Source: Parcubacteria group bacterium GW2011_GWC1_45_13 (GTDB lineage Bacteria; Patescibacteriota; Minisyncoccia; UBA11713; 2-01-FULL-45-33). Taken from it: 64,000 bases of DNA. A program made the translations under genes and the position numbers. Positions 1,378-12,074 of this stretch are shown here, in pieces. The notes under the pieces were generated by a model. The model was given only the letters and a program-made list of their open reading frames with translations. It had not been told where the DNA came from and did not search any database. The stretch lies in assembly GCA_001001285.1 (NCBI GenBank), contig LCKG01000003.1, positions 27,746 through 91,745 on the forward strand, in the 5' to 3' direction. The first letter of the stretch is position 1; every line of letters begins with the position of its first letter.

Positions 1378-1419
1378 GTTGAAACTCGGCGGATTTTGTG
1401 CTAGAATTAAGTCAATAAA

Positions 1420-3882
1420 ATGGCTCAAAAAGAACCTGAAAAATTACAGGCGATAGGGACGGTTTCGCCAAGAGAGATCGTAACCGAAATGCAGGAGTCT
1501 TATTTGGACTACGCCATGTCGGTTATTGTTTCGCGTGCCTTGCCGGACGTCAGAGACGGCTTAAAACCAGTGCACCGCCGGATTCTTTTTGCCATGCACG
1601 AAATGGGCCTTACGCATTCCGCCAAAACCAAAAAATCCGCTAATGTTGTAGGCGAGGTTTTGGGAAAATATCATCCGCACGGCGACGTTGCCGTTTATGA
1701 TTCATTGGTGAGAATGGCGCAGGATTTTTCCTTGAGATATCCATTGATAGAAGGGCAGGGGAATTTCGGGTCAATTGATGGCGATTCGGCTGCCGCCATG
1801 CGCTACACCGAGGCCAGAATGTCCGCCATTACCACAGAGATGCTCCGGGACATTGAAAAAGAAACAATTGATTTTATTCCGAATTATGACGGGTCAAAAT
1901 TTGAGCCAGTCGTTTTGCCAGCCGCGATTCCGCAACTTTTACTCAACGGTTCCATGGGAATTGCCGTCGGCATGGCCACCAATATTCCACCGCATAATTT
2001 AACGGAAGTCGCGGAGGCGGCGCTCCATTTGATGACGCATCCTAAAGCAACGGTGGAGGACCTTACGGAATTCGTGAAAGGGCCGGATTTCCCGACGGGC
2101 GGAATAATTTTCAATAAAAAAGAAATTTTGCAGGCTTACGCAACCGGCCGCGGCGGAGTTATAAATAGGGGGGAGGCAGAAATTTTGGAGAAAAAAAATG
2201 GCGAATGGCAGATTGTCATCACATCCATTCCTTATTTGGTGAATAAATCGGAGCTGATTGTGAAAATGGCAGATTTGGTGCATGACAAAAAGCTGGAAGG
2301 CATCCGCGATATAAGGGACGAGTCCGACAAAGAGGGCCTCCGCGTGGCGATTGACCTCAAGCGCGACTCTTATCCCCAAAAAGTTTTGAATAATCTTTAT
2401 AAGCATACCGATTTGGAACGCGCCTTCCATTTTAATATGATCGCTTTGGTTGACGGGGGGCGCCAGCCGCAGACACTTTCTTTAAAAAGTATTCTTGAAG
2501 AATTCATCAAACATCGCCGGATAATAATTGAACGAAGGTCAAAATTTGATTTAGCGCGGGCCCAGGACAGGGAGCATATTCTTTTGGGGCTTAAAAAAGC
2601 GTTGGACCATATTGACGCGATAATTAAAACGATAAAAGGTTCCGCCAGCAAAGAAGAGGCGCATAAAAATTTAATTAAAAAATTTGATTTGTCCGACAAG
2701 CAGGCCTCGGCGATTTTAGAAATGCGCCTCTCGGCTTTGGCAGGCTTGGAAAGGCAGAAAATTGAAGACGAGCTGAAAGAAAAACAAAAATTAATCAAAG
2801 AATTAAAAGCGCTTTTGGCGGACGCCAAAAAAATAGACGAAGTCGTGAAAGACGAACTTTCGGAAGCCAAGAAAAAATACGGAGATGAGAGAAAAACAAA
2901 AGTTATTTCGGGAGCCGCGAAAATAATTTCGGCGGAAGATTTGGTGCCGGAAGAAGAAACCATTTTAATTTTAACGCAGGGCGGATACGTAAAAAGAATT
3001 AAGCCGGACGAATACCGCGTCCAGCGAAGGGGCGGCAAAGGAGTCATCGGCGTTACCACAAAAGAGGAAGACGTTGCCTACGAATTTATTTCCGGCAACA
3101 CACACGATGACCTTTTATTTTTTACGAATCTAGGAAAAGTTTATCAAACCAAAATGTACGAAATTCCGGAAGGCACGCGCCAGTCAAAAGGAAAAGCGAT
3201 TGCCAATTTCCTTTCTTTGTCTGCGGACGAAAAAGTTACTTCCGTCCTGCCGGTTCCAAAAACAAAAAAGGGCCAGGCGAGCTACGTAATTTTGTCCACC
3301 CAAAAAGGAGTGACAAAAAAAGTTGATTCCAAAGATTTTGAAGACGTGCGCCATTCCGGAATCCGAGCGATTAACCTCCAAAAGGGGGACACTTTGCGCT
3401 TCGCGCGGGTCGTAATGCCTGGCGAAGAGGTCGCGCTCTCTTCCAAGCTGGGGCAGGCAGTCCGTTTCAAAGAAAAAGACATCCGCCCGATGGGCAGAAC
3501 CGCCCAGGGAATCCGCGGGATGCGCCTTAAAAAGAACGATGAGATAGTTGGGATGGATATTTTGCCGCAAAACGCGAAAAAATTGGAAATTTTATCGGTT
3601 TCCCAGCAGGGCTACGGCAAAAAAACAAATATAACCCAATATCGCCTCCAAAAACGCGGTGGGTCGGGAGTTAAAACATGCAAAGTCACTTCCAAAACCG
3701 GACCTCTGGTTTCTGTTCAGGTTGTGAAAGAAGACCAGCAGGAAATTATCGCGATTTCCAAAAAGGGGCAGGTCATCCGCGCGCCGCTTTCGCAGATTCC
3801 TTCGCTTTCGCGCGCCACGCAGGGCGTGAGAATTATGAAAGTGAACGCAGGAGACGCTGTGGCTTCGGTAACTCTTTTGTAA
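1420..3882 (+). CDS. gyrA: DNA gyrase subunit A
   Basis: Contains AMHEMGL…HPHGD…[42 protein letters not shown], with the catalytic Tyr (…AMRYTEAR…). Length 820 aa, with a C-terminal beta-pinwheel region. Confidence 0.95.
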
Positions 3883-3883
3883 A

Positions 3884-4507
3884 ATGGATTTGCGGGAGAC
3901 ATACAATAAAATAGCGGAGGACTGGCATAAAGATCATAAACAGGATAATTGGTGGGTTGAGGGAACAAATGAATTTATCTCATTTTTAAAACCAAATAGT
4001 TTGGTGCTTGACGCTGGCTGCGGCGCCGGCACTAAATCTAAATATTTAATAGACAGAGGATTAAAAGTTGTCGGAATAGATTTTTCAGACAAGCTGATTG
4101 AAATAGCAAAAAGAGAAGCGCCTTCCGGAAACTTTTTTGTGATGGATATTAATGAAGCGGACAAACTGAAAGAAAATTTTGACGGGATTTTTGCGCAAGC
4201 GGTTTTACTGCATATTCAAAAAAAAGACGCGGAAAAAACATTAAATAAATTATTGGGCGTATTAAAACCCGGCGGATATTTATACATAGCAGTCAAAGAA
4301 AAAAAATTCGGCGGCGCGGATGAAGAAATAAAAACAGAAAACGACTACGGATATCCTTACGAAAGATTTTTCAGCTATTTTACTTTGGACGAAATAAAAA
4401 ATTTGATGATAGAGTTGGGATTGGCTATTAATTATGAAAATATATCTCAATACGGGTATACAAGATGGATACAGGTCATTGGGCAACAAAATAAAAATGG
4501 AAAATAA
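3884..4507 (+). CDS. Class I SAM-dependent methyltransferase
   Basis: Motif I VLDAGCGAGTKSKYL is followed by a VVGIDFS acidic loop. The gene is AT-rich. Confidence 0.8.
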   Translation: MDLRETYNKIAEDWHKDHKQDNWWVEGTNEFISFLKPNSLVLDAGCGAGTKSKYLIDRGLKVVGIDFSDKLIEIAKREAPSGNFFVMDINEADKLKENFDGIFAQAVLLHIQKKDAEKTLNKLLGVLKPGGYLYIAVKEKKFGGADEEIKTENDYGYPYERFFSYFTLDEIKNLMIELGLAINYENISQYGYTRWIQVIGQQNKNGK

Positions 4508-4844
4508 AAAATTTATTTTACGGATTAGATTGAGAGATAAATATATTTTTCAAGCAATTAAGAATGGTAACAAGAAAGTTGATACCAGAGCGGCGTCAAC
4601 TAGGAATCGTTCAATAAAAACTGGCGATAAACTCATTTTAATTTGCGGAAAAGAAAAAATTGAAAGAAAAGTAAAGGGAGTTAGAGTTTTTAAAACCATT
4701 TCGGCGCTTCTGAAGAAATATAAACCGCAACAAATCAATCCAAAAACATTTTCGGAGAAAGAAATAACAAAAATGTATTACAGTTTTCCCGGATACAAAG
4801 AAAAAATAAAAAAATACGGGTTGATTGTTATAGAATTGAAATAA
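4497..4844 (+). CDS. ASCH/PUA-like domain protein (hypothetical)
   Basis: About 115 aa from MENKKFIL… with basic, beta-rich ASCH-like features (GDKLILICGKEKI). Overlaps the MTase end by 11 nt. Very AT-rich. Start chosen at the internal ATG that matches the family length. Confidence 0.45.
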   Translation: MENKKFILRIRLRDKYIFQAIKNGNKKVDTRAASTRNRSIKTGDKLILICGKEKIERKVKGVRVFKTISALLKKYKPQQINPKTFSEKEITKMYYSFPGYKEKIKKYGLIVIELK

Positions 4845-4848
4845 AAAC

Positions 4849-4857
4849 TTATCCACA
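4849..4857 (+). promoter_or_regulatory. Perfect DnaA box TTATCCACA, 36 nt upstream of nrdJ
   Basis: Exact 9-mer consensus. One of four same-strand perfect copies in the window. Confidence 0.5.
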
Positions 4858-4892
4858 CTTGCGGGGGTTTGCGAGGAGTATAAAATAAGAGA

Positions 4893-7676
4893 ATGAGCGA
4901 GGCGGGAAGCGTAGTTTTTAAAGAGGAATCAAAGAAAGGCGCGCTGTTTGGAGCGCGCGGGCTTAATTTTAAGCGCTATTTTACTAAGGAAGGCGTCCAT
5001 CCCTATGATGAAATAGCGTGGGAAAAACGCGTTGCCCGCATCACCTCATCCAAAGGCGAGGTTATTTTTGAGCAAAAGGGCGTTGAGGCGCCGAAATTTT
5101 GGTCGCAGACGGCAACGGACATTGTCGCCGAGAAATATTTTATGGGGCATGTCGGCAAGCCCGGCAGGGAGTGGTCCGTAAAACAGCTTATAGACCGCGT
5201 TGCAAATACGATGGCGGACTGGGGCAGGCAAGGCGGTTGTTTCGCGGACGAAAAAGACGCGCAAATTTTCAACGAGGAGCTTAAATGGCTATTGGTCAAC
5301 CAGTACGCCTCATTTAATTCGCCGGTTTGGTTTAATGTCGGGGTTGAAAAGAAACCGCAGTGCTCGGCCTGTTTCATTTTGTCCATTACGGACGATAAAG
5401 AGTCCATTGCCGAATGGTATAGGACAGAGATGATGATTTTTTCAGGCGGCTCCGGCGCGGGAATAAATATTTCGCCTCTGCGCTCGTCCAAAGAAAATAT
5501 CGCCGGCCGCGGGAAATCGTCAGGCCCGGTGTCTTTTATGAAAGGAGCCGACGCGATTGCCGGCACAATCCGTTCCGGCGGCAAGACGCGAAGGGCGGCT
5601 AAGATGGTGATTTTAAACGCAAGCCACCCCGATATAAAAACTTTCATAGTTTCCAAATGGAAGGAGGAAGAAAAAGCAAAAGCGCTTATCTCTATGGGTT
5701 ATAACGACGACATTGACGGCGACGTCTATTCAAACATTTTTTTCCAAAACGCCAACAATTCCGTCCGCGCCACGGATGATTTTATGAACGCGGTTTTGGA
5801 AGACAAAAATTGGGAACTCCGAATGATAAAGACAGGCGAGGTTGCCGAGACATTAAAAGCAAGGGACCTTATGAAGCTCATCGCCGAGGCGGCTTGGCAC
5901 TGCGCCGACCCGGGCATGCAATTTGATACGACGATTAATAAATGGCACACCGCTCCCGCCGCAGGCCGCATCAACGGCTCCAACCCGTGCTCGGAATACA
6001 TGCACTTGGACGATTCCGCCTGCAATCTTGCTTCACTAAATCTTCTTAAATTTTTAAATCCGCCGGCTGGCGGAGGCAATTTTGACCACGAGGCGTTTAA
6101 AAAAGCCGTCGGCATTTTTATCACGGCGCAGGATATTACCGTGGACAATTCTTCCTACCCCACGGCTAAAATTGAACAAAACGCCCGCGCTTTCCGCGAA
6201 CTTGGCCTGGGGTACACGAATCTCGGCGCGCTTTTAATGCAGATGGGCTTTCCTTATGATTCAGACGCCGCGCGGGCTTGGGCGGCCGCGATAACTTCAA
6301 TGATGACCGGCGAGGCCTACAATATTTCCACGCGTGTTGCCGAAGCAGTCGGCCCATTTTCCGGATATGAAAAAAATAAGGAGCCGATGCTCGGCGTAAT
6401 CCGCATGCACGGCGAAGAAGCAAAAAAAATAAGCAAAAAGTATCTGCCGGCGGACGTTTGGGAATCCGCCCAAACGCCTTGGGCCGAGGCTCAAAAGCGC
6501 GGCCAGCTCTCTGGCGTCCGGAATTCCCAAGTGAGCGTTTTGGCGCCAACCGGCACGATTTCTTTCATGATGGACGCCACAACCACTGGCATTGAGCCGG
6601 CGTTTTCGCTCGTCGCCTACAAAAAAATGGTGGGCAGAGGATTTTTGAAAATCGCGAACACCTCCGTTGAGCCTGCGCTCAAAAATTTGGGATATAAAGA
6701 ACAAGAAGTCAAAGAAATAATGGATTATATTTTAGCGCATGACGGCATTGAAGGCGCCCCGCATCTTAAAGAAAAAGACATCGCCGTTTTTGATTGTGCC
6801 GTGAACGCCCCCGGCGGCAAGCGAGCCATCCATTATTCCGGCCACATCCGCATGATAGCCGCCGCGCAACCTTTCATTTCCGGAGCGATTTCCAAAACAG
6901 TGAATCTCCCCGAGTCGGCGACGGTTGAGGATATTATGAACACCTACATCGACGCTTGGAAAATGGGGCTTAAGGCGATCGCAATTTACCGCGACAAATC
7001 CAAAGGCGCCCAGCCCCTAAACACTTCCAAGGCAAAGCCATCAAGCGAAAGCGCTGTTGGTGCCAAAGAGGCCGCGCCGTCGGAAGTTGAAAGAAAAAAA
7101 TTGCCGTCAAACGTAAAATCTCTACGCCATAAATTTTCCATCGCAGGGCACGAGGGCTATATCCATTGCGGAATGTATGAAGACGGCAAATTGGGCGAAA
7201 TTTTTATCCGCGTGGCCAAAGAGGGCTCTACCATATCCGGTCTTCTGGATGCCATAGGCGTGCTCATGTCCGTCGCGCTCCAATCGGGAGTTCCGGTTGA
7301 AACTATCGTCAGAAAATTCGTCCATTCCCGTTTTGAGCCGGCCGGATACACAGAAAATCAGGATATTCCGGTTGCCAAATCAATTTTGGATTACATTGGA
7401 AAATTTTTAGCGCTCAATTTTCTTTCTCCAGATGACCAAGCTTCTTTCGGCATCTATTCGCATTCAAAAGAAGCGGAAACTGTCGTGGCGGAGCCTTTTA
7501 AGCTCAAAGAACAACCTAAGCTTTCCTCTCCGGCTTCCGTGCCAGCGGCGTACGACCGCGCTAAAATTTTCGCCTACCAGGATGCTCCCGCCTGCCGTTG
7601 CGGCGCGATTATGATCCGCACCGGCTCCTGCTACACCTGCCCCTCTTGCGGCGAAAACCTCGGGAGCTGCTCGTAG
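4893..7676 (+). CDS. nrdJ: Adenosylcobalamin-dependent (class II) ribonucleoside reductase
   Basis: Active-site region CSACFIL…; GGSGAGINISPLR…GPVSFMKG; C-terminal Cys-rich tail CRCGAIMIRTGSCYTCPSCG typical of NrdJ. 927 aa. Confidence 0.9.
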   Translation: MSEAGSVVFKEESKKGALFGARGLNFKRYFTKEGVHPYDEIAWEKRVARITSSKGEVIFEQKGVEAPKFWSQTATDIVAEKYFMGHVGKPGREWSVKQLIDRVANTMADWGRQGGCFADEKDAQIFNEELKWLLVNQYASFNSPVWFNVGVEKKPQCSACFILSITDDKESIAEWYRTEMMIFSGGSGAGINISPLRSSKENIAGRGKSSGPVSFMKGADAIAGTIRSGGKTRRAAKMVILNASHPDIKTFIVSKWKEEEKAKALISMGYNDDIDGDVYSNIFFQNANNSVRATDDFMNAVLEDKNWELRMIKTGEVAETLKARDLMKLIAEAAWHCADPGMQFDTTINKWHTAPAAGRINGSNPCSEYMHLDDSACNLASLNLLKFLNPPAGGGNFDHEAFKKAVGIFITAQDITVDNSSYPTAKIEQNARAFRELGLGYTNLGALLMQMGFPYDSDAARAWAAAITSMMTGEAYNISTRVAEAVGPFSGYEKNKEPMLGVIRMHGEEAKKISKKYLPADVWESAQTPWAEAQKRGQLSGVRNSQVSVLAPTGTISFMMDATTTGIEPAFSLVAYKKMVGRGFLKIANTSVEPALKNLGYKEQEVKEIMDYILAHDGIEGAPHLKEKDIAVFDCAVNAPGGKRAIHYSGHIRMIAAAQPFISGAISKTVNLPESATVEDIMNTYIDAWKMGLKAIAIYRDKSKGAQPLNTSKAKPSSESAVGAKEAAPSEVERKKLPSNVKSLRHKFSIAGHEGYIHCGMYEDGKLGEIFIRVAKEGSTISGLLDAIGVLMSVALQSGVPVETIVRKFVHSRFEPAGYTENQDIPVAKSILDYIGKFLALNFLSPDDQASFGIYSHSKEAETVVAEPFKLKEQPKLSSPASVPAAYDRAKIFAYQDAPACRCGAIMIRTGSCYTCPSCGENLGSCS

Positions 7677-8087: not shown

Positions 8088-8098
8088 TTTATATATCA

Positions 8099-8124
8099 GC
8101 TAATTCGTGAGAATTAGAGAATAG
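8099..8124 (+). promoter_or_regulatory. 26-bp repeat GCTAATTCGTGAGAATTAGAGAATAG containing palindrome CTAATTC-N4-GAATTAG (copy 1, overlapping the arsR-family gene promoter)
   Basis: Exact duplicate at 8473..8498. A TAGAAT -10 lies at 8138..8143, only 6 nt before the ATG, so the mRNA is near-leaderless. Confidence 0.6.
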
Positions 8125-8149
8125 TTGCGGGGTGTGCTAGAATTTTATT

Positions 8150-8413
8150 ATGAATGAAAAAGAGCTGGAAAAGGCGTTAAAAGCGCTGGCCAATAAAAGA
8201 AGGCTTCAAATTCTGCGGTATTTAAAAAAAGTTAAAGAAGCGCCGGTGGGGGATATCGCTGAAGAAATTCGTTTGTCGTTTAAATCAACCTCCCGGCACT
8301 TGGCGGTGCTTGCCGCGGCCGATATTTTAGAGCGGGACCAAAGAAGCCTCCAAGTTTTCTATCGCCTCGGCGCGCTTCGGCACGCGGCGAAATATATTTT
8401 ATCTATTCTTTGA
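8150..8413 (+). CDS. ArsR/SmtB-family winged-helix transcriptional regulator
   Basis: LKALANKRRLQILRYL…VGDIAEEIRLSFKSTSRHLAVLAAADIL…FYRL is a typical ArsR HTH. 87 aa. Confidence 0.75.
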   Translation: MNEKELEKALKALANKRRLQILRYLKKVKEAPVGDIAEEIRLSFKSTSRHLAVLAAADILERDQRSLQVFYRLGALRHAAKYILSIL

Positions 8414-8472
8414 TGCAATTTTTATGCTTTTATATTTTTGCTTATACCTTTTGTTGTGCTTCTTGTGTCTCG

Positions 8473-8498
8473 GCTAATTCGTGAGAATTAGAGAATAG
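8473..8498 (+). promoter_or_regulatory. 26-bp palindromic repeat, copy 2 (between arsR-like gene and putative endonuclease gene)
   Basis: Identical 26-mer to 8099..8124. Confidence 0.6.
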
Positions 8499-8620
8499 AT
8501 GGGGTTGGGGGAGGCGGGTTTTGGTTTGATAAATAAATGATTTTGTGCGAGAATTTGAGGGAGTGTTGATTTTCGTCTTTAAAATATATTAAATTTGGTA
8601 TATTCTAGAAAAATCAACTC

Positions 8621-9325
8621 TTGAATATGTTGTTAGAAAAAGAAAAAAGAAAATCAGGTAACGAAGCAATACGCGTTTTAATTTCCTTAAAAACAAAGAT
8701 TTTGCGTGATTTAAAGGAAGTTGTTAATGCTGGCGATTTTGATTACCGCACTTTTGGTACAGCCATTGAAAAGCATCTTACTGATATTATTGTCAGTATT
8801 TTTGAGAAAGCCGGTTTTATTAAAAATAATAAAGATTATATCGTTGCACCCCATAAAAATTATTTTCCAGATTTCGAACTAAAAACAGCGCCACCCATCG
8901 CTATTGAGTTTAAATCCGGGAATAGAAATCAAAATAGACAGGGTAAATGGGCGACGGTTAAAAATAGCGAGAATGATATGGGCACTCTTAATGAATGGCC
9001 CAAAAGAATTAAAAAATTCGGTGGTAAAAATATTTATTATATTTTTGTTATCTATAATTTTAGTGAGAAAACAAAACAAGTTCAAAATGTTGAAATCGCT
9101 CCGTTTTATGAATTTTTAGGTTTGAACAAGTCCAAGTTTATTAAATATCGAGAAAAAGATGGAAATTTGCGGCCCAAAAATTTTGATGCTAAGCCGCCCA
9201 TTAAAACTTTTGAGCAATTTGAACAATTAATCAACAAAACCGCCGTTTATAGATCCAGGCGAATTATTAAGAAGCACAGACAAATTATAAAGGATGTGCA
9301 GAATATTAAAAAAGGGATGGATTAA
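8621..9325 (+). CDS. Putative Type II restriction endonuclease (PD-(D/E)xK fold) – hypothetical
   Basis: …YFPDFELKTAPPIAIEFKSG… gives PD-x12-EFK, a PD-(D/E)xK-like catalytic signature. Convergent with the MTase gene, overlapping it by 20 nt. AT-rich. No recognisable family beyond the motif. Confidence 0.45.
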   Translation: MNMLLEKEKRKSGNEAIRVLISLKTKILRDLKEVVNAGDFDYRTFGTAIEKHLTDIIVSIFEKAGFIKNNKDYIVAPHKNYFPDFELKTAPPIAIEFKSGNRNQNRQGKWATVKNSENDMGTLNEWPKRIKKFGGKNIYYIFVIYNFSEKTKQVQNVEIAPFYEFLGLNKSKFIKYREKDGNLRPKNFDAKPPIKTFEQFEQLINKTAVYRSRRIIKKHRQIIKDVQNIKKGMD

Positions 9326-10868
9326 TTGGTTTACTATTCTGCTTTGTGCCGTAAGTTAATTTAGGATTATCTATAGGATAGATCCCTTCGTTCTCGGATA
9401 TAGTCAAATTTCTTAAATATTTTGATGCCGTTTCAGGCGCGTCGTTGTTATACTTATAACCATTACTTGAACGATAATTAACCTTTTTAAGTTTATCCGC
9501 AACGATTTTTTTATATTTTGGGTCTATATCAATACCAATATAATTTCGGCCTAGTCTTTTTGCTGCCAAAGCTGTTGTACCAGCACCGATAAATGGATCT
9601 AAAATAACATCGTTTTCATCTGTAGTCATAAGAACCAGACGTTCAAGTAATGGTTCGGGGAGTTGGCACGGATGAGCGTCCCTGCGCGTATTATGTCTTA
9701 TGCGATGTATATCCGCCCAAACATCGCTCAAAAGAGTCCCGTGCGGGTGTATTTGGCTTTTCTTGCCCCCATAGTCTTTAATCATTTCACCACAAGTTCG
9801 GCATTTTTTATGCGGCGATCTAAGTTCATGGAATTTAAATCCCTTGGGGGTTTTTGTATAAAATAGTATTCCATAGTGTGCTGGCAACAAAGTTTTTCCC
9901 AGAGGCGTACTCATTGAATCCCATGCTATCCAGTGTTTAAAGATAGCAATTTTGTTAAGATGGTTGGCATAATAAATTAACCACTTTGGTATATTGTGAA
10001 CCAAAATCGAACCCGTTGGTTTAGTTATTCTGACCATTTCGGTTAACCATTGCTCGCACCATTTTATATAATCCTCCGCAACCCTTTTATCTTTATAGTT
10101 TCCGTATTTTTTGTTTAGGTTAAATGGCGGGTCGGCAAAAGTCATATCAATTGAGTTATCGGGTATTTTTCTCATCTCCTCAATTGAATCTCCACACAAA
10201 ATTTCGTTTAATGGAAGTTTTTTGTATTGTTTTGTTTCAGTTTTGATTTCCGGAAAAATAATAGATATGGGCGTTTCCTCTCGAATAACATCTAGCACAA
10301 TCCCTTGAATAGCTACATCCCGCCCATTTCTGAAAATAAGAGGTTCCATATTTTTATTAGCCGGCTGTAAACGGATATATCCGTGCTCTTTATAGAATTT
10401 TTTTAAGGTTGCTTCGTGGTTATCTATAAGAGCTACTACTTTTTGCCCATTTTCGGCAGTTTCTTGTTGGCGCACCAAAACAACGTCGCCATCGTTGATA
10501 TTTTCATCAATCATACTATTCCCGACAACGCGGAGAGCATAAACCTCCGATGAGGAGGGAATTTTACTTTTCGGGACGGCTATGGTTTCTCTTTGTTCCT
10601 CAAATACATGGATTGGCTCACCGGCGGCTATTGTTCCCCATAAAGGAATTTTTACTAGCTTCTCCGACGAGGATATTTCAATGCCTCTTTTCTGATTTTT
10701 TTGCCGCTGTAAATAACCCTTATTTTGCAGTGCCATTAAATGTTGATGAATTGTGGATATAGCCAAGCCCATCCTTTGCCCCATTTCTTTAATGGAGGGC
10801 GCAAAGCCGCGCTTTTTGGTGTAGGAGGTTACAAAATCTAACACCTGTTTTTGCCTGGGGGTAAGCAT
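9306..10868 (-). CDS. LexA repressor (wHTH + S24 autopeptidase) fused to beta-class N6-adenine/N4-cytosine DNA methyltransferase
   Basis: LexA half (N-terminal ~200 aa): LTPRQKQVLDF…; Ala-Gly cleavage site in GTIAAGEP; LRVVGNSMIDENINDGDVVLV (nucleophile Ser); ATLKKF (general-base Lys); IQGIVLDVIR. MTase half (C-terminal ~320 aa): motif IV DMTFADPPF precedes motif I DPFIGAGTTALAAKRLGRNYIGIDID (beta-group order); CxxC…HPH insert. Single uninterrupted 520-aa ORF. Confidence 0.8.
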   Translation of the reverse strand: MLTPRQKQVLDFVTSYTKKRGFAPSIKEMGQRMGLAISTIHQHLMALQNKGYLQRQKNQKRGIEISSSEKLVKIPLWGTIAAGEPIHVFEEQRETIAVPKSKIPSSSEVYALRVVGNSMIDENINDGDVVLVRQQETAENGQKVVALIDNHEATLKKFYKEHGYIRLQPANKNMEPLIFRNGRDVAIQGIVLDVIREETPISIIFPEIKTETKQYKKLPLNEILCGDSIEEMRKIPDNSIDMTFADPPFNLNKKYGNYKDKRVAEDYIKWCEQWLTEMVRITKPTGSILVHNIPKWLIYYANHLNKIAIFKHWIAWDSMSTPLGKTLLPAHYGILFYTKTPKGFKFHELRSPHKKCRTCGEMIKDYGGKKSQIHPHGTLLSDVWADIHRIRHNTRRDAHPCQLPEPLLERLVLMTTDENDVILDPFIGAGTTALAAKRLGRNYIGIDIDPKYKKIVADKLKKVNYRSSNGYKYNNDAPETASKYLRNLTISENEGIYPIDNPKLTYGTKQNSKPINPSLF

Positions 10869-10918: not shown

Positions 10919-11012
10919 ACCATTAAAAAGGCGCTTGAATAAAAACCTAAAATCCACTAAGATTTAGGGGATTTGTAACCGGGTCGACAAAAAATTAGGA
11001 GAGTAAATTTTT

Positions 11013-11678
11013 ATGTCAGAATCAATAAATATTAACGATGTTTTTAAAGAAATAGAAAAGTCTGATAAGTCAGAATATCATCGCGGTAAATCTTGGGAAC
11101 ATTGTTATATTTTTTTCAGAAACTATAAAAAATTCGGAAGTGATAAGTTGATGGCAGATTACGCAGCGCTACATTTGGGTTTTTTTCTAGCTAGTTGGGG
11201 GATGTTGCGTGGTTCGAGCTTTTTGTTGCAGAAAGATTACAGATACTTCCTTCCGGTTGTTCGCGTATTGATAAAAGACCAATATAAAGTTTTGTGGAAT
11301 GTTGGCTATTTAAATTTGAACAAAAATCAAGAAAGCGAAATTATTGATATCTTGTTTTGGTTAAAAGACGACATTTGTAAAGTTATGACTCACAATAATC
11401 CTGACGGTAGAAAACCAACCGATTTGTTGATAACAAAAATTATAATGGCCACGATGGGCTGCGTGCCCGCTTATGATCAATATTTTAAGGCCGGTCTTAA
11501 GAGGCGTGGAATTAAAAATAACTTCAGCAAAAAAGCCTTCATAGATTTATTGAATTTCTCGAGAAAAAAACTAGAAAAACTTTATATCAAAAAACAGCCT
11601 ATTAAAGGGACAAATTATAATTATCCTACAGTGAAACTTATAGATTTATACTTTTGGCTTTTAGGTTCGCAAAAATAA
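11013..11678 (+). CDS. Hypothetical protein (divergent from LexA-MTase gene)
   Basis: 221-aa ORF with no recognisable motifs. AT-rich. Shares the 144-bp intergenic region with the LexA-MTase promoter. Confidence 0.6.
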   Translation: MSESININDVFKEIEKSDKSEYHRGKSWEHCYIFFRNYKKFGSDKLMADYAALHLGFFLASWGMLRGSSFLLQKDYRYFLPVVRVLIKDQYKVLWNVGYLNLNKNQESEIIDILFWLKDDICKVMTHNNPDGRKPTDLLITKIIMATMGCVPAYDQYFKAGLKRRGIKNNFSKKAFIDLLNFSRKKLEKLYIKKQPIKGTNYNYPTVKLIDLYFWLLGSQK

Positions 11679-11693
11679 CCGGCCAACAAAAAA

Positions 11694-12074
11694 TTAACGG
11701 GAGAAAGTTTTTTGGATTAAAAAGCCCAGAAGCCAGCCGATGAGGCCGAGGGCGATTGGAAAATAAATGTGGGAGAGGTCAAAATAAACTTCAAAAATCA
11801 CCGCGGGGATGAGCAAAACGCCAATCCACCAGTATTTTTTTGAACCGCCGAAGGCGGTGAAGAGGAGAGTGAGGAAGAAAATGTATGAAAGTGGTATACC
11901 TAAAAGAAAGTTTTCAGCAGATTTCGGCGTGCTAAATAGACTTCCCTCACTAGCACCCTGGGGGAAAAAATAAACATACAGGTTGCCAACCTGATTTGCA
12001 AAAAAATAAGCCAAAACTAAAACAACAATCAGAATGCAAATATTTTTTATTAAATTTTTTAGATCTTCGCTCAT
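11694..12074 (-). CDS. Hypothetical integral membrane protein
   Basis: 126 aa with about four predicted TM helices. 4-nt overlap with the downstream lipase gene. Confidence 0.55.
   Translation of the reverse strand: MSEDLKNLIKNICILIVVLVLAYFFANQVGNLYVYFFPQGASEGSLFSTPKSAENFLLGIPLSYIFFLTLLFTAFGGSKKYWWIGVLLIPAVIFEVYFDLSHIYFPIALGLIGWLLGFLIQKTFSR

Follow-up and report, generated by a model that had tools for sequence, protein, structure and literature searches.

The window, i.e., the whole stretch of 64,000 nucleotides analysed here, belongs to contig LCKG01000003.1 of Parcubacteria group bacterium GW2011_GWC1_45_13. It contains a small gene of the ArsR/SmtB type, arsR, which is bracketed by two identical copies of a 26-bp repeat (Table 1). 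The repeat, GCTAATTCGTGAGAATTAGAGAATAG, has exactly two matches in the window, both on the plus strand. A third copy was not found in the 64 kb at up to 3 mismatches (shuffle expectation 0.00). The similarity of the two copies exceeds 26 nt: positions 8089-8130 and 8463-8504 align over 42 nt with 86% identity. The core of each copy is a perfect 7-4-7 dyad, CTAATTC-GTGA-GAATTAG, at 8100-8117 and 8474-8491. Relaxed scans of the window with ATTCNNNNGAAT, AATTCGNNCGAATT and CTAATTCG returned no convincing additional dyad, and no further arsR paralogue was found there; thus, a single arsR gene is accompanied by two dyads, one on each side and 374 bp apart.

Copy 1 consists of the core dyad CTAATTCGTGAGAATTAG followed by an outer right arm, AGAATAG (8118-8124), and overlaps the -35 region and the spacer of the predicted arsR promoter. 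This promoter has a -35-like TAGAGA (8115-8120) inside copy 1, a 17-bp spacer, a TG at 8135-8136 and a -10 hexamer TAGAAT (8138-8143), the end of which is separated by 6 nt from the ATG at 8150. Copy 2 is located between the arsR stop codon (8413) and the next open reading frame (ORF), which starts with TTG at 8621 or ATG at 8627; it is displaced by 60 nt past the arsR stop. In these points a preliminary description, drawn up from the letters of the locus, was accurate. It had placed the 26-mer on both sides of an ArsR-family gene, copy 1 over the -35 region with the TAGAAT hexamer 6 nt before the ATG, and copy 2 between arsR and a putative endonuclease gene. Exact search, the Pfam and NCBIfam scores given below, the promoter scan and the coordinates all agree with it.

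Table 1. Features of the arsR locus and of the adjacent restriction-modification (R-M) pair; positions are those of the window.
Feature	Position	Strand	Basis
Copy 1, upstream operator (predicted)	8099..8124	+	Exact repeat; position equivalent to the upstream site of homologues
arsR promoter (predicted)	8115..8143	+	Promoter scan
arsR gene, 87-aa ArsR/SmtB-type winged-helix protein	8150..8413	+	Pfam, NCBIfam scores
End of the arsR coding sequence, TCT ATT CTT TGA (Ser-Ile-Leu-stop)	8402..8413	+	Window sequence
Copy 2, downstream operator (predicted)	8473..8498	+	Exact repeat; core dyad 8474-8491
P2 promoter-like module (candidate)	8523..8559	+	Promoter scan, conservation in L005
Left edge of low-GC R-M insertion	8562..8626	+	blastn vs L005, GC profile
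Putative type II restriction endonuclease, 232 aa	8627..9325 (alternative TTG start 8621)	+	FPD-x11-E-x-K motif
LexA DNA-binding + S24 peptidase + N6/N4 DNA methyltransferase fusion	9306..10868	-	Pfam, NCBIfam

Judged by profile scores the arsR product is a member of the ArsR/SmtB family with a winged helix of the HTH_5/NF033788 type: it reaches 35.6 bits with Pfam HTH_5 (PF01022; cut-off 22) and 64 bits with NCBIfam NF033788 (cut-off 55). Matches are confined to winged-helix families (HTH_5, HTH_20, MarR_2 and others); the Pfam scan returned neither HTH_3 nor an Xre family. The solved structures nearest by sequence in the PDB are HlyU (1e-6), CzrA, BigR (1e-3), PagR (6e-4) and NolR (2e-4); the matches to HlyU, BigR, PagR and NolR are of low identity and cover residues 8-77 only. 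The recognition helix is FKSTSRHL and includes Arg49. A site for sensing metals or metalloids, i.e., an alpha3N Cys pair or an alpha5 Asp/His/Glu cluster, was not found in the alignment of the window protein with its homologues. The window protein is devoid of Cys, its sole invariant His (H50) is part of the recognition helix, and His, Asp and Glu residues of the C-terminal helix are not conserved. The neighbours of arsR in the window are RNR, DUF167 and the R-M pair, none of them a metal-resistance gene. The protein collection contains 328 homologues of 83-106 aa, those with names originating from Liptonbacteria, Giovannonibacteria, Paceibacterota and Jorgensenbacteria, and 407 relatives are present in species-representative genomes, all of which are Patescibacteria-type metagenome-assembled genomes (MAGs). 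The closest relative is encoded by locus L005 of a Giovannonibacteria MAG, with 89% identity of the ArsR proteins.

The bracketing of arsR by two dyads is a property of the family. We fetched 80 loci and counted 118 ArsR-like ORFs over all loci gathered; gene calls were crude (longest ORF, greedy), and counts of gene orientation or of sites inside ORFs are approximate. A dyad is present upstream in 105 of the 118 ORFs, downstream in 98 and on both sides in 92. Across the 80 fetched loci the upstream dyad lies about 30-60 nt ahead of the start codon and the second dyad at the 3' end of the gene. Of the 98 downstream dyads, 42 begin at offset -4 relative to the ORF end, in the sequence ATT CTC TAA TTCG: the operator arm codes for Ile-Leu-stop, the TAA is inside the palindrome, and the proteins terminate in SLL or SIL. 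With the stop codon of arsR overlapped in this manner the downstream copy belongs to arsR. A displaced downstream dyad, as in the window, is also seen in L005. The end of the window coding sequence (Table 1) is probably a relic of the usual TCT ATT CTC TAA TTCG, in which the left operator arm codes for Ile-Leu-stop. Full-text literature searches turned up no description of an ArsR-palindrome system for Patescibacteria or Parcubacteria.

The palindrome of most homologous genes is about 30 bp long and reads tATTCT-CTAATTCG-NN-CGAATTAG-AGAATa. A consensus built on 131-225 instances reads tATTCT-CTAATTCG-CG-CGAAT(a/t/g)(a/g)G-(a/c)GAATAg. Four GAAT/ATTC units thus make up the element in an inverted 13-2-13 arrangement, and the central step is pyrimidine-purine, i.e., CG, CA/TG or TA. 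An imperfect inverted repeat on the promoter of its own regulator gene is expected of an ArsR-type operator, and at the level of sequence this is what is found here, as a 13-2-13 repeat over the -35 region and the spacer. The operators of SmtB and CzrA have a 12-2-12 architecture. The half of the element which is 5' relative to the direction of the gene is the better conserved one, at a ratio of 39:1 for upstream sites, 29:3 for downstream sites and 17:1 elsewhere. One visible reason for this polarity is that the right arm doubles as promoter -10 element: in 17 of 83 upstream sites it is GAATGGTAGAAT, i.e., a TGnTAGAAT extended -10 box.

The promoter layout is conserved as well. For 45 of 80 homologues an in-frame ATG follows a -10-like hexamer at a distance of 6-9 nt, and for 23 the distance is exactly 6 nt. 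Among control genes of these loci, 72 of 397 have such a hexamer at 6-9 nt and 50 of 397 at 6-7 nt, and their distances likewise peak at 6-7 nt. Because the spacing between the -10 box and the ATG is conserved, the prediction that transcription starts at or beside the A of the ATG at 8150 and gives a leaderless mRNA is well supported, and the near-leaderless promoter proposed in the preliminary description is borne out to this extent. As an aside, near-leaderless or leaderless mRNAs seem to be frequent in this group of bacteria, judging from the control genes of L005-L084. A TGTGCTAGAAT box, as at arsR, is also present 12 nt before the start of gyrA (window 1399-1422).

Are the dyads recognized by the protein which they bracket? 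Two lines of evidence suggest so. On the one hand, the upstream and downstream copies of one and the same gene agree at the variable positions of the element. Among the 92 genes with both copies the left outer triplet is shared in 51 (25 expected), the right outer triplet in 48 (20 expected) and the centre in 53 (25 expected); a further figure for position sharing between the two copies is 42 as against 15 in shuffled pairs. None of 2000 shuffles reached the observed agreement. Divergent paralogues carry a variant of their own at both sites, ACAATTCCATAGAATTGT in L032 and AACATTCTGCAGAATGTT in L013, which suggests that a genome may contain several protein-operator pairs which do not cross-react. 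Divergent arsR paralogues with own dyad variants were noticed in L032 and L013 (the second paralogue of each locus) and, additionally, in L204 (TTTATTCG.../CTTATTCA...) and L105. On the other hand, residue 49 of the recognition helix (T-S-R/K-H-L) covaries with the central dinucleotide of the upstream sites (Fisher 2e-14, uncorrected for phylogeny). Arg49 is combined with CA/TG 29 times against 3, and Lys49 with CG or TA 52 times against 6. The downstream sites repeat this pattern. The window combination of Arg49 and a GTGA centre fits the Arg-CA/TG rule. The presence of an upstream dyad in 105 of 118 homologues, the agreement of the copies and the covariation of residue 49 jointly favor the earlier assignment of the dyad as a candidate ArsR operator.

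Dyads are not restricted to the immediate vicinity of arsR. A dyad-first scan of metagenomes with CTAATTCGNNCGAATTAG detected at least 120 loci. Among the matches listed, 41 perfect dyads are within 250 nt of an ArsR-like ORF, 70 are not, and 33 are too near to a contig end. Of these 70 arsR-distant dyads 50 are intergenic, several touching or overlapping the preceding stop codon; 8 are positioned between convergent and 6 between divergent genes. A coherent regulon was considered and rejected: genes beside dyads code for 139 proteins, which Pfam divides among 126 families without a shared theme, the most frequent ones being ArsR (4), DinB/IMS (3) and DUF3850 (3). A phage or mobile origin of the dyad was discarded likewise, given a single match in the viral contig collection. 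With two copies in 64 kb and this one viral match, the element forms a family of dispersed low-copy sites linked to the arsR family, as opposed to a high-copy repeat.

Taken together, these observations lead us to propose, with a probability of roughly 70%, that the two repeats are paired cognate operators of a small sensor-less ArsR/SmtB-type protein which is conserved across Patescibacteria and is separate from the R-M genes. ArsR, presumed to be a dimer because its site is symmetric, would bind to both dyads. Bound at copy 1 it would block access of RNA polymerase, resulting in negative autoregulation of arsR, and since sensor residues are absent such autoregulation would be homeostatic. 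Copy 2 heads the next transcription unit ahead of the promoter-like module P2 (Table 1) and may gate or insulate transcription leaving arsR. The -10 region of P2 carries a third half-site-like sequence. The low-copy intergenic dyads dispersed in related genomes suggest a small, heterogeneous regulon.

Several points weigh against this proposal. Every mechanistic step is deduced from sequence, and the protein has no evident sensor residues which would relieve repression. Of the 111 assessable perfect dyads among the matches listed 70 have no ArsR-like gene within 250 nt, and the neighbours of the dyads are heterogeneous, i.e., the regulon is without a visible theme. The test of residue 49 ignores kinship: 84 of 109 proteins share their R/K state with the nearest neighbour. 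The agreement between the two copies of a gene could reflect gene conversion between direct repeats instead of selection. Some copies in other genomes are perfect palindromes of 36-40 nt, which is beyond what the footprint of one ArsR would need. The geometry at P2 is not that of a classic repressor or activator: the centre of copy 2 precedes the predicted start of P2 by about 78 nt, and in the window and L005 the spacing between the dyad centre and the -35 box of P2 is not constant (43.5, 49.5 and 66.5 nt). Lastly, a convergent gene faces 16 of 77 downstream copies; consequently, not all downstream copies can act on a downstream promoter.

Downstream of copy 2 the character of the window changes. 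The 232-aa protein encoded there matches no Pfam or NCBIfam family. It has 254 homologues. In its FPD-x11-E-x-K motif D82, E94 and K96 are invariant. The fusion protein encoded next to it matches LexA_DNA_bind (1.7e-19), Peptidase_S24 (3.7e-30) and N6_N4_Mtase (3.7e-51) in Pfam and reaches 199 bits with TIGR00498 lexA. The two genes are always convergent in 4 other Patescibacteria contexts of the 232-aa protein, and both an arsR homologue and the dyad are absent from the other endonuclease/fusion loci (L206-L211). Homology between the window and L005 in blastn comprises RNR, DUF167, arsR, copy 2 and about 60 nt more, and ends at 8561. The GC content, about 0.45-0.50 in RNR, DUF167 and arsR, drops to about 0.31-0.33 at 8400-9400 and stays below 0.42 up to about position 12000. 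This composition sets off the R-M pair and ORF 11013-11678 as foreign. A gap of 207 nt with separate promoter-like sites precedes the endonuclease gene; TGGTATATT at 8596-8604, inside the insertion, is a candidate extended -10 of this gene. By homology and base composition, then, the R-M pair is a later, self-contained low-GC insertion with a LexA-type DNA-binding domain of its own. What follows the downstream dyad differs from genome to genome: genes for RRF, ArgRS, GyrB, SecA, TrpRS, QueA, MsrB, DinB and PurM were seen in this position, as were those for Fic, RelE, a copper ATPase and a recurrent zinc-ribbon protein of 600 aa. In L005 the position is taken by the gene for a type I HsdR; of about 80 arsR loci this is the only one with a restriction gene beside arsR, and that gene is of a different type.

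Copy 2 and the start of the R-M insertion are separated by the candidate promoter P2. It is composed of a -35 box TTGATA (8526-8531), a 17-bp spacer, a TG (8546-8547) and a -10 box GAGAAT (8549-8554) and is directed into the endonuclease gene; therefore, ArsR could influence transcription of this gene in this particular genome. The -10 region of P2, GAGAATTTGAG (8549-8559), is similar to the dyad's right half. GAGAATTNGAG has three matches in the window as against 0.23 expected, two inside the dyads and the third in P2. Two homologous modules can be recognised, one made up of copy 1 and the arsR promoter, the other of copy 2 and the next 60 nt. Both end with TGTGC(T/G)AGAATTT, and they differ by an insertion which brings in the TTGATA -35 box. 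P2 occurs three times in L005, i.e., before a gene for a NYN-domain protein, before arsR and before hsdR, and is absent elsewhere among 211 loci. That P2 is a general promoter of the genome was rejected, the sequence being confined to dyad neighbourhoods in this lineage. The three dyad+P2 modules of L005 are at 3064-4437, ahead of the NYN gene (3168-3668), arsR and the type I hsdR (4435-6786). Compared with the window, the NYN cassette of L005 sits exactly between two dyad copies, and at the equivalent spot the restriction genes differ. A Cys-rich protein (about 600 aa), the N-terminus of which forms a zinc ribbon (e.g., MAISEKRVCQNCQSEF...), recurs directly after arsR homologues, sometimes in tandem (L008 4412-6241 and 6296-8071; L042, L047, L068, L072, L080). 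Each copy of the zinc-ribbon gene is headed by its own dyad, the right arm of which can act as the -10 of a near-leaderless start.

The preliminary description had gone one step further and suggested a C-protein-like controller circuit for the adjacent R-M module, built from an ArsR. In such a dedicated circuit copy 1 would serve autoregulation and copy 2 would switch the endonuclease gene. We now consider this very unlikely. The position of copy 2 between arsR and the endonuclease gene, the direction of P2 into the latter and the half-site-like GAGAATTTGAG in its -10 region are what one would expect of such a circuit. Leaderless transcripts are typical of C genes, and the modules which head hsdR and the NYN gene in L005 indicate that accessory or defence genes do follow dyad+P2 modules in this lineage. 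Nevertheless, the two-site bracket exists in most of the 118 homologues next to neighbours which are mutually unrelated and mostly housekeeping genes, and the endonuclease/LexA-methyltransferase pair lives without arsR or dyad in its 4 other contexts. The GC content of arsR is host-like, that of the R-M pair is low from near 8562 onwards; the methyltransferase brings along its own LexA DNA-binding domain and the endonuclease gene its own candidate extended -10. The two sites bracket arsR at a distance of 374 bp and do not form tandem C-boxes ahead of a C-R operon, copy 2 does not overlap with P2, and the overlap of the downstream copy with the arsR stop in 42 of 98 cases identifies it as arsR's own. 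An influence of ArsR on the endonuclease gene, if any, would be an incidental capture and not a dedicated controller circuit.

Two further explanations dispense with a conventional operator pair. The palindromes might act as nucleic-acid hairpins, e.g., as 3'-end, terminator or REP-like structures, the link to arsR being secondary or the protein binding to the hairpin form. The flanks beyond the fixed 18-mer do vary yet stay complementary (TATAGG/CCTATA, TATCGG/CCGATA, CACTTT/AAAGTG and ATATCC/GGATAT among the matches listed). In the alignment of the dyad loci listed 79.8% of flank cells are paired as against 66.1% after shuffling, a value reached by 0 of 500 shuffles, and the covariation score is 0.356 versus 0.129; the signal is lost when the partner column is shifted. 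For some copies in other genomes the folding energy is -27 to -32 kcal/mol (z-scores -8 to -11), the element keeps a consistent orientation relative to gene direction (39:1, 29:3, 17:1), and the intergenic location of 50 of the 70 arsR-distant dyads listed, often at stop codons and in 8 cases between convergent genes, is compatible with a function at 3'-ends. The compensation is strictly Watson-Crick, however: for columns 16/35 we counted TA 72, GC 49, CG 9, AT 3, G.U 0 and other 8, a pattern more readily reconciled with a symmetric protein on double-stranded DNA, or with arms which evolve in concert, than with an RNA stem. The pyrimidine-purine step at the centre likewise favors double-stranded DNA over RNA. 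The hairpin of the window dyad is weak (-6.7 kcal/mol, z-scores -0.9 to -1.3) with non-complementary outer arms. No U-tract or T-run follows the element in the window or in the consensus, the flanks being T-rich 5' and A-rich 3' in both directions; the terminator scan of the window does not list the dyad, and the element matches no Rfam family. The low copy number (2 in 64 kb) and the covariation of residue 49 with the central dinucleotide, which points to read-out by a protein, argue in the same direction, and the upstream copy precedes the arsR -10 and so is outside of the arsR mRNA. We give hairpins very little credence. Similarly improbable in our estimate are boundary or junction elements, i.e., dyads which act as protein-bound roadblock insulators or terminators and, as direct repeats, promote gain and loss of cassettes. 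The NYN cassette between dyads and the different restriction genes after dyad+P2 in the window and L005 are in line with this, as are dyads between unrelated genes without a theme, in convergent as well as co-directional settings, and a half-site asymmetry which is polar to transcription. Against it stands a downstream gene which in many lineages is a conserved housekeeping one (RRF twice, ArgRS twice, the zinc-ribbon protein of about 600 aa six times). A right arm which also serves as -10 box can account for the polarity, the cassette difference is limited to one pair of genomes, and no recombinase was seen beside dyads, for which no systematic search was made.

Paired cognate operators of a sensor-less ArsR thus remain the reading which we prefer. 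It could be part of a lineage-wide protein-palindrome system of minimal sensor-less ArsR paralogues, often several in one genome and each with its own palindrome variant of about 30 bp, the sites of which are polar boundary elements and cassette junctions; this broader proposition we regard as rather unlikely. If it holds, each protein would have its gene bracketed at the stop codon and would mark a few dozen intergenic boundaries beside unrelated genes. The sites would then be roadblock terminators or insulators, in genomes seemingly poor in classical terminators, and not an ordinary regulon. Dyads as direct repeats would be swap points for accessory and defence cassettes, here the NYN gene, the type I hsdR and the type II R-M pair.

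A comparison with known systems is instructive. With SmtB, CzrA, CadC and NmtR the window ArsR shares the HTH_5 fold family, the small size of the gene and an inverted repeat, approximately 13-2-13, on its own promoter. Different from metal sensors of the SmtB/CzrA type, it is without Cys or an alpha3N/alpha5 metal site and without adjacent metal-resistance genes; moreover, a second operator at the 3' end of the gene, sites scattered near unrelated genes and the predicted leaderless mRNA set it apart. HlyU, BigR, PagR and NolR, the closest solved structures apart from CzrA, are ArsR-type proteins which do not sense metals and regulate genes other than those for metal resistance. NolR recognizes palindromic operators at more than one promoter. 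Redox-active cysteines, of which the window ArsR has none, are employed by HlyU and BigR, and no member of this group is known to have two bracketing operators. The controller proteins C.PvuII, C.AhdI and C.Esp1396I are likewise small DNA-binding proteins encoded upstream of an endonuclease gene, with palindromic operators and a leaderless transcript. They have an Xre-type helix-turn-helix (HTH), tandem C-boxes directly upstream of the C gene and co-transcription of C and R, and they are inherited together with the R-M unit. The window ArsR has a different fold, sites which flank its gene at a distance of 374 bp, and an inheritance independent of the R-M unit; neither an Xre HTH nor tandem C-boxes with a co-transcription layout nor co-inheritance with the R-M unit was found. 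REP/RAYT systems also combine dispersed extragenic palindromes with a dedicated gene flanked by two copies. RAYT is a Y1 transposase, though, and REPs number hundreds per genome and act as hairpins. Here the gene codes for a winged HTH, compensated positions lack G.U, the site covaries with a residue of the recognition helix, and neither a high copy number (two copies in 64 kb, 1 viral match) nor a Y1-transposase gene was found. Gal OE/OI, lac O1/O2 and deo, finally, also have two identical operators, one at the promoter and one downstream. Unlike these loops, the second site is past the whole gene, and DNA looping between the operators gains no support: the spacing of 292-414 bp in 92 genes lacks helical phasing (Rayleigh p 0.5-0.9). 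In terms of class, the system would be an ArsR-type autorepressor with its operators. It is distinguished by its phylum-wide occurrence, by a second operator with the stop codon inside it, by site variants specific to paralogues and by intergenic copies dispersed elsewhere.

In the tiny genomes of Patescibacteria, the candidate phyla radiation (CPR), few regulators can be recognised and hardly any cis-element has been defined by experiment; most of these organisms are uncultured. The present analysis would provide a phylum-conserved family of transcription factors together with its predicted operator sequence and a candidate rule of specificity, Arg49 for a CA/TG centre and Lys49 for a CG centre. 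To this are added a conserved leaderless promoter layout and an unusual second operator over the stop codon of the regulator itself. These are handles for studying gene regulation in largely unculturable organisms. The practical message for the R-M module is negative: it is probably a separate mobile pair which has a LexA-type domain of its own and is not run by an ArsR-type controller.

Some minor observations concern this R-M pair. The fusion protein has a complete LexA-like N-terminus, made up of the DNA-binding domain and a self-cleaving S24 peptidase, which suggests that autoregulation or an SOS-like cleavage of the methyltransferase might occur in this unit. A candidate operator for the LexA domain, AAATCCACTAA-N3-TTAGGGGATTT, is located at 10950-10974 of the window between the methyltransferase gene and the divergent ORF 11013-11678, and another one at 8600-8628, ATATTCTAGA-N9-TCTTGAATAT, extends across the endonuclease start. 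Upstream of the endonuclease/fusion pair in L208 (about 3800-4000) and L209 (about 3660-3860) tRNA-like 3' ends are discernible (ggttcgactcccgg... and ggttcaaatccgcc...), which hints at an insertion of the pair beside tRNA genes at these two loci.

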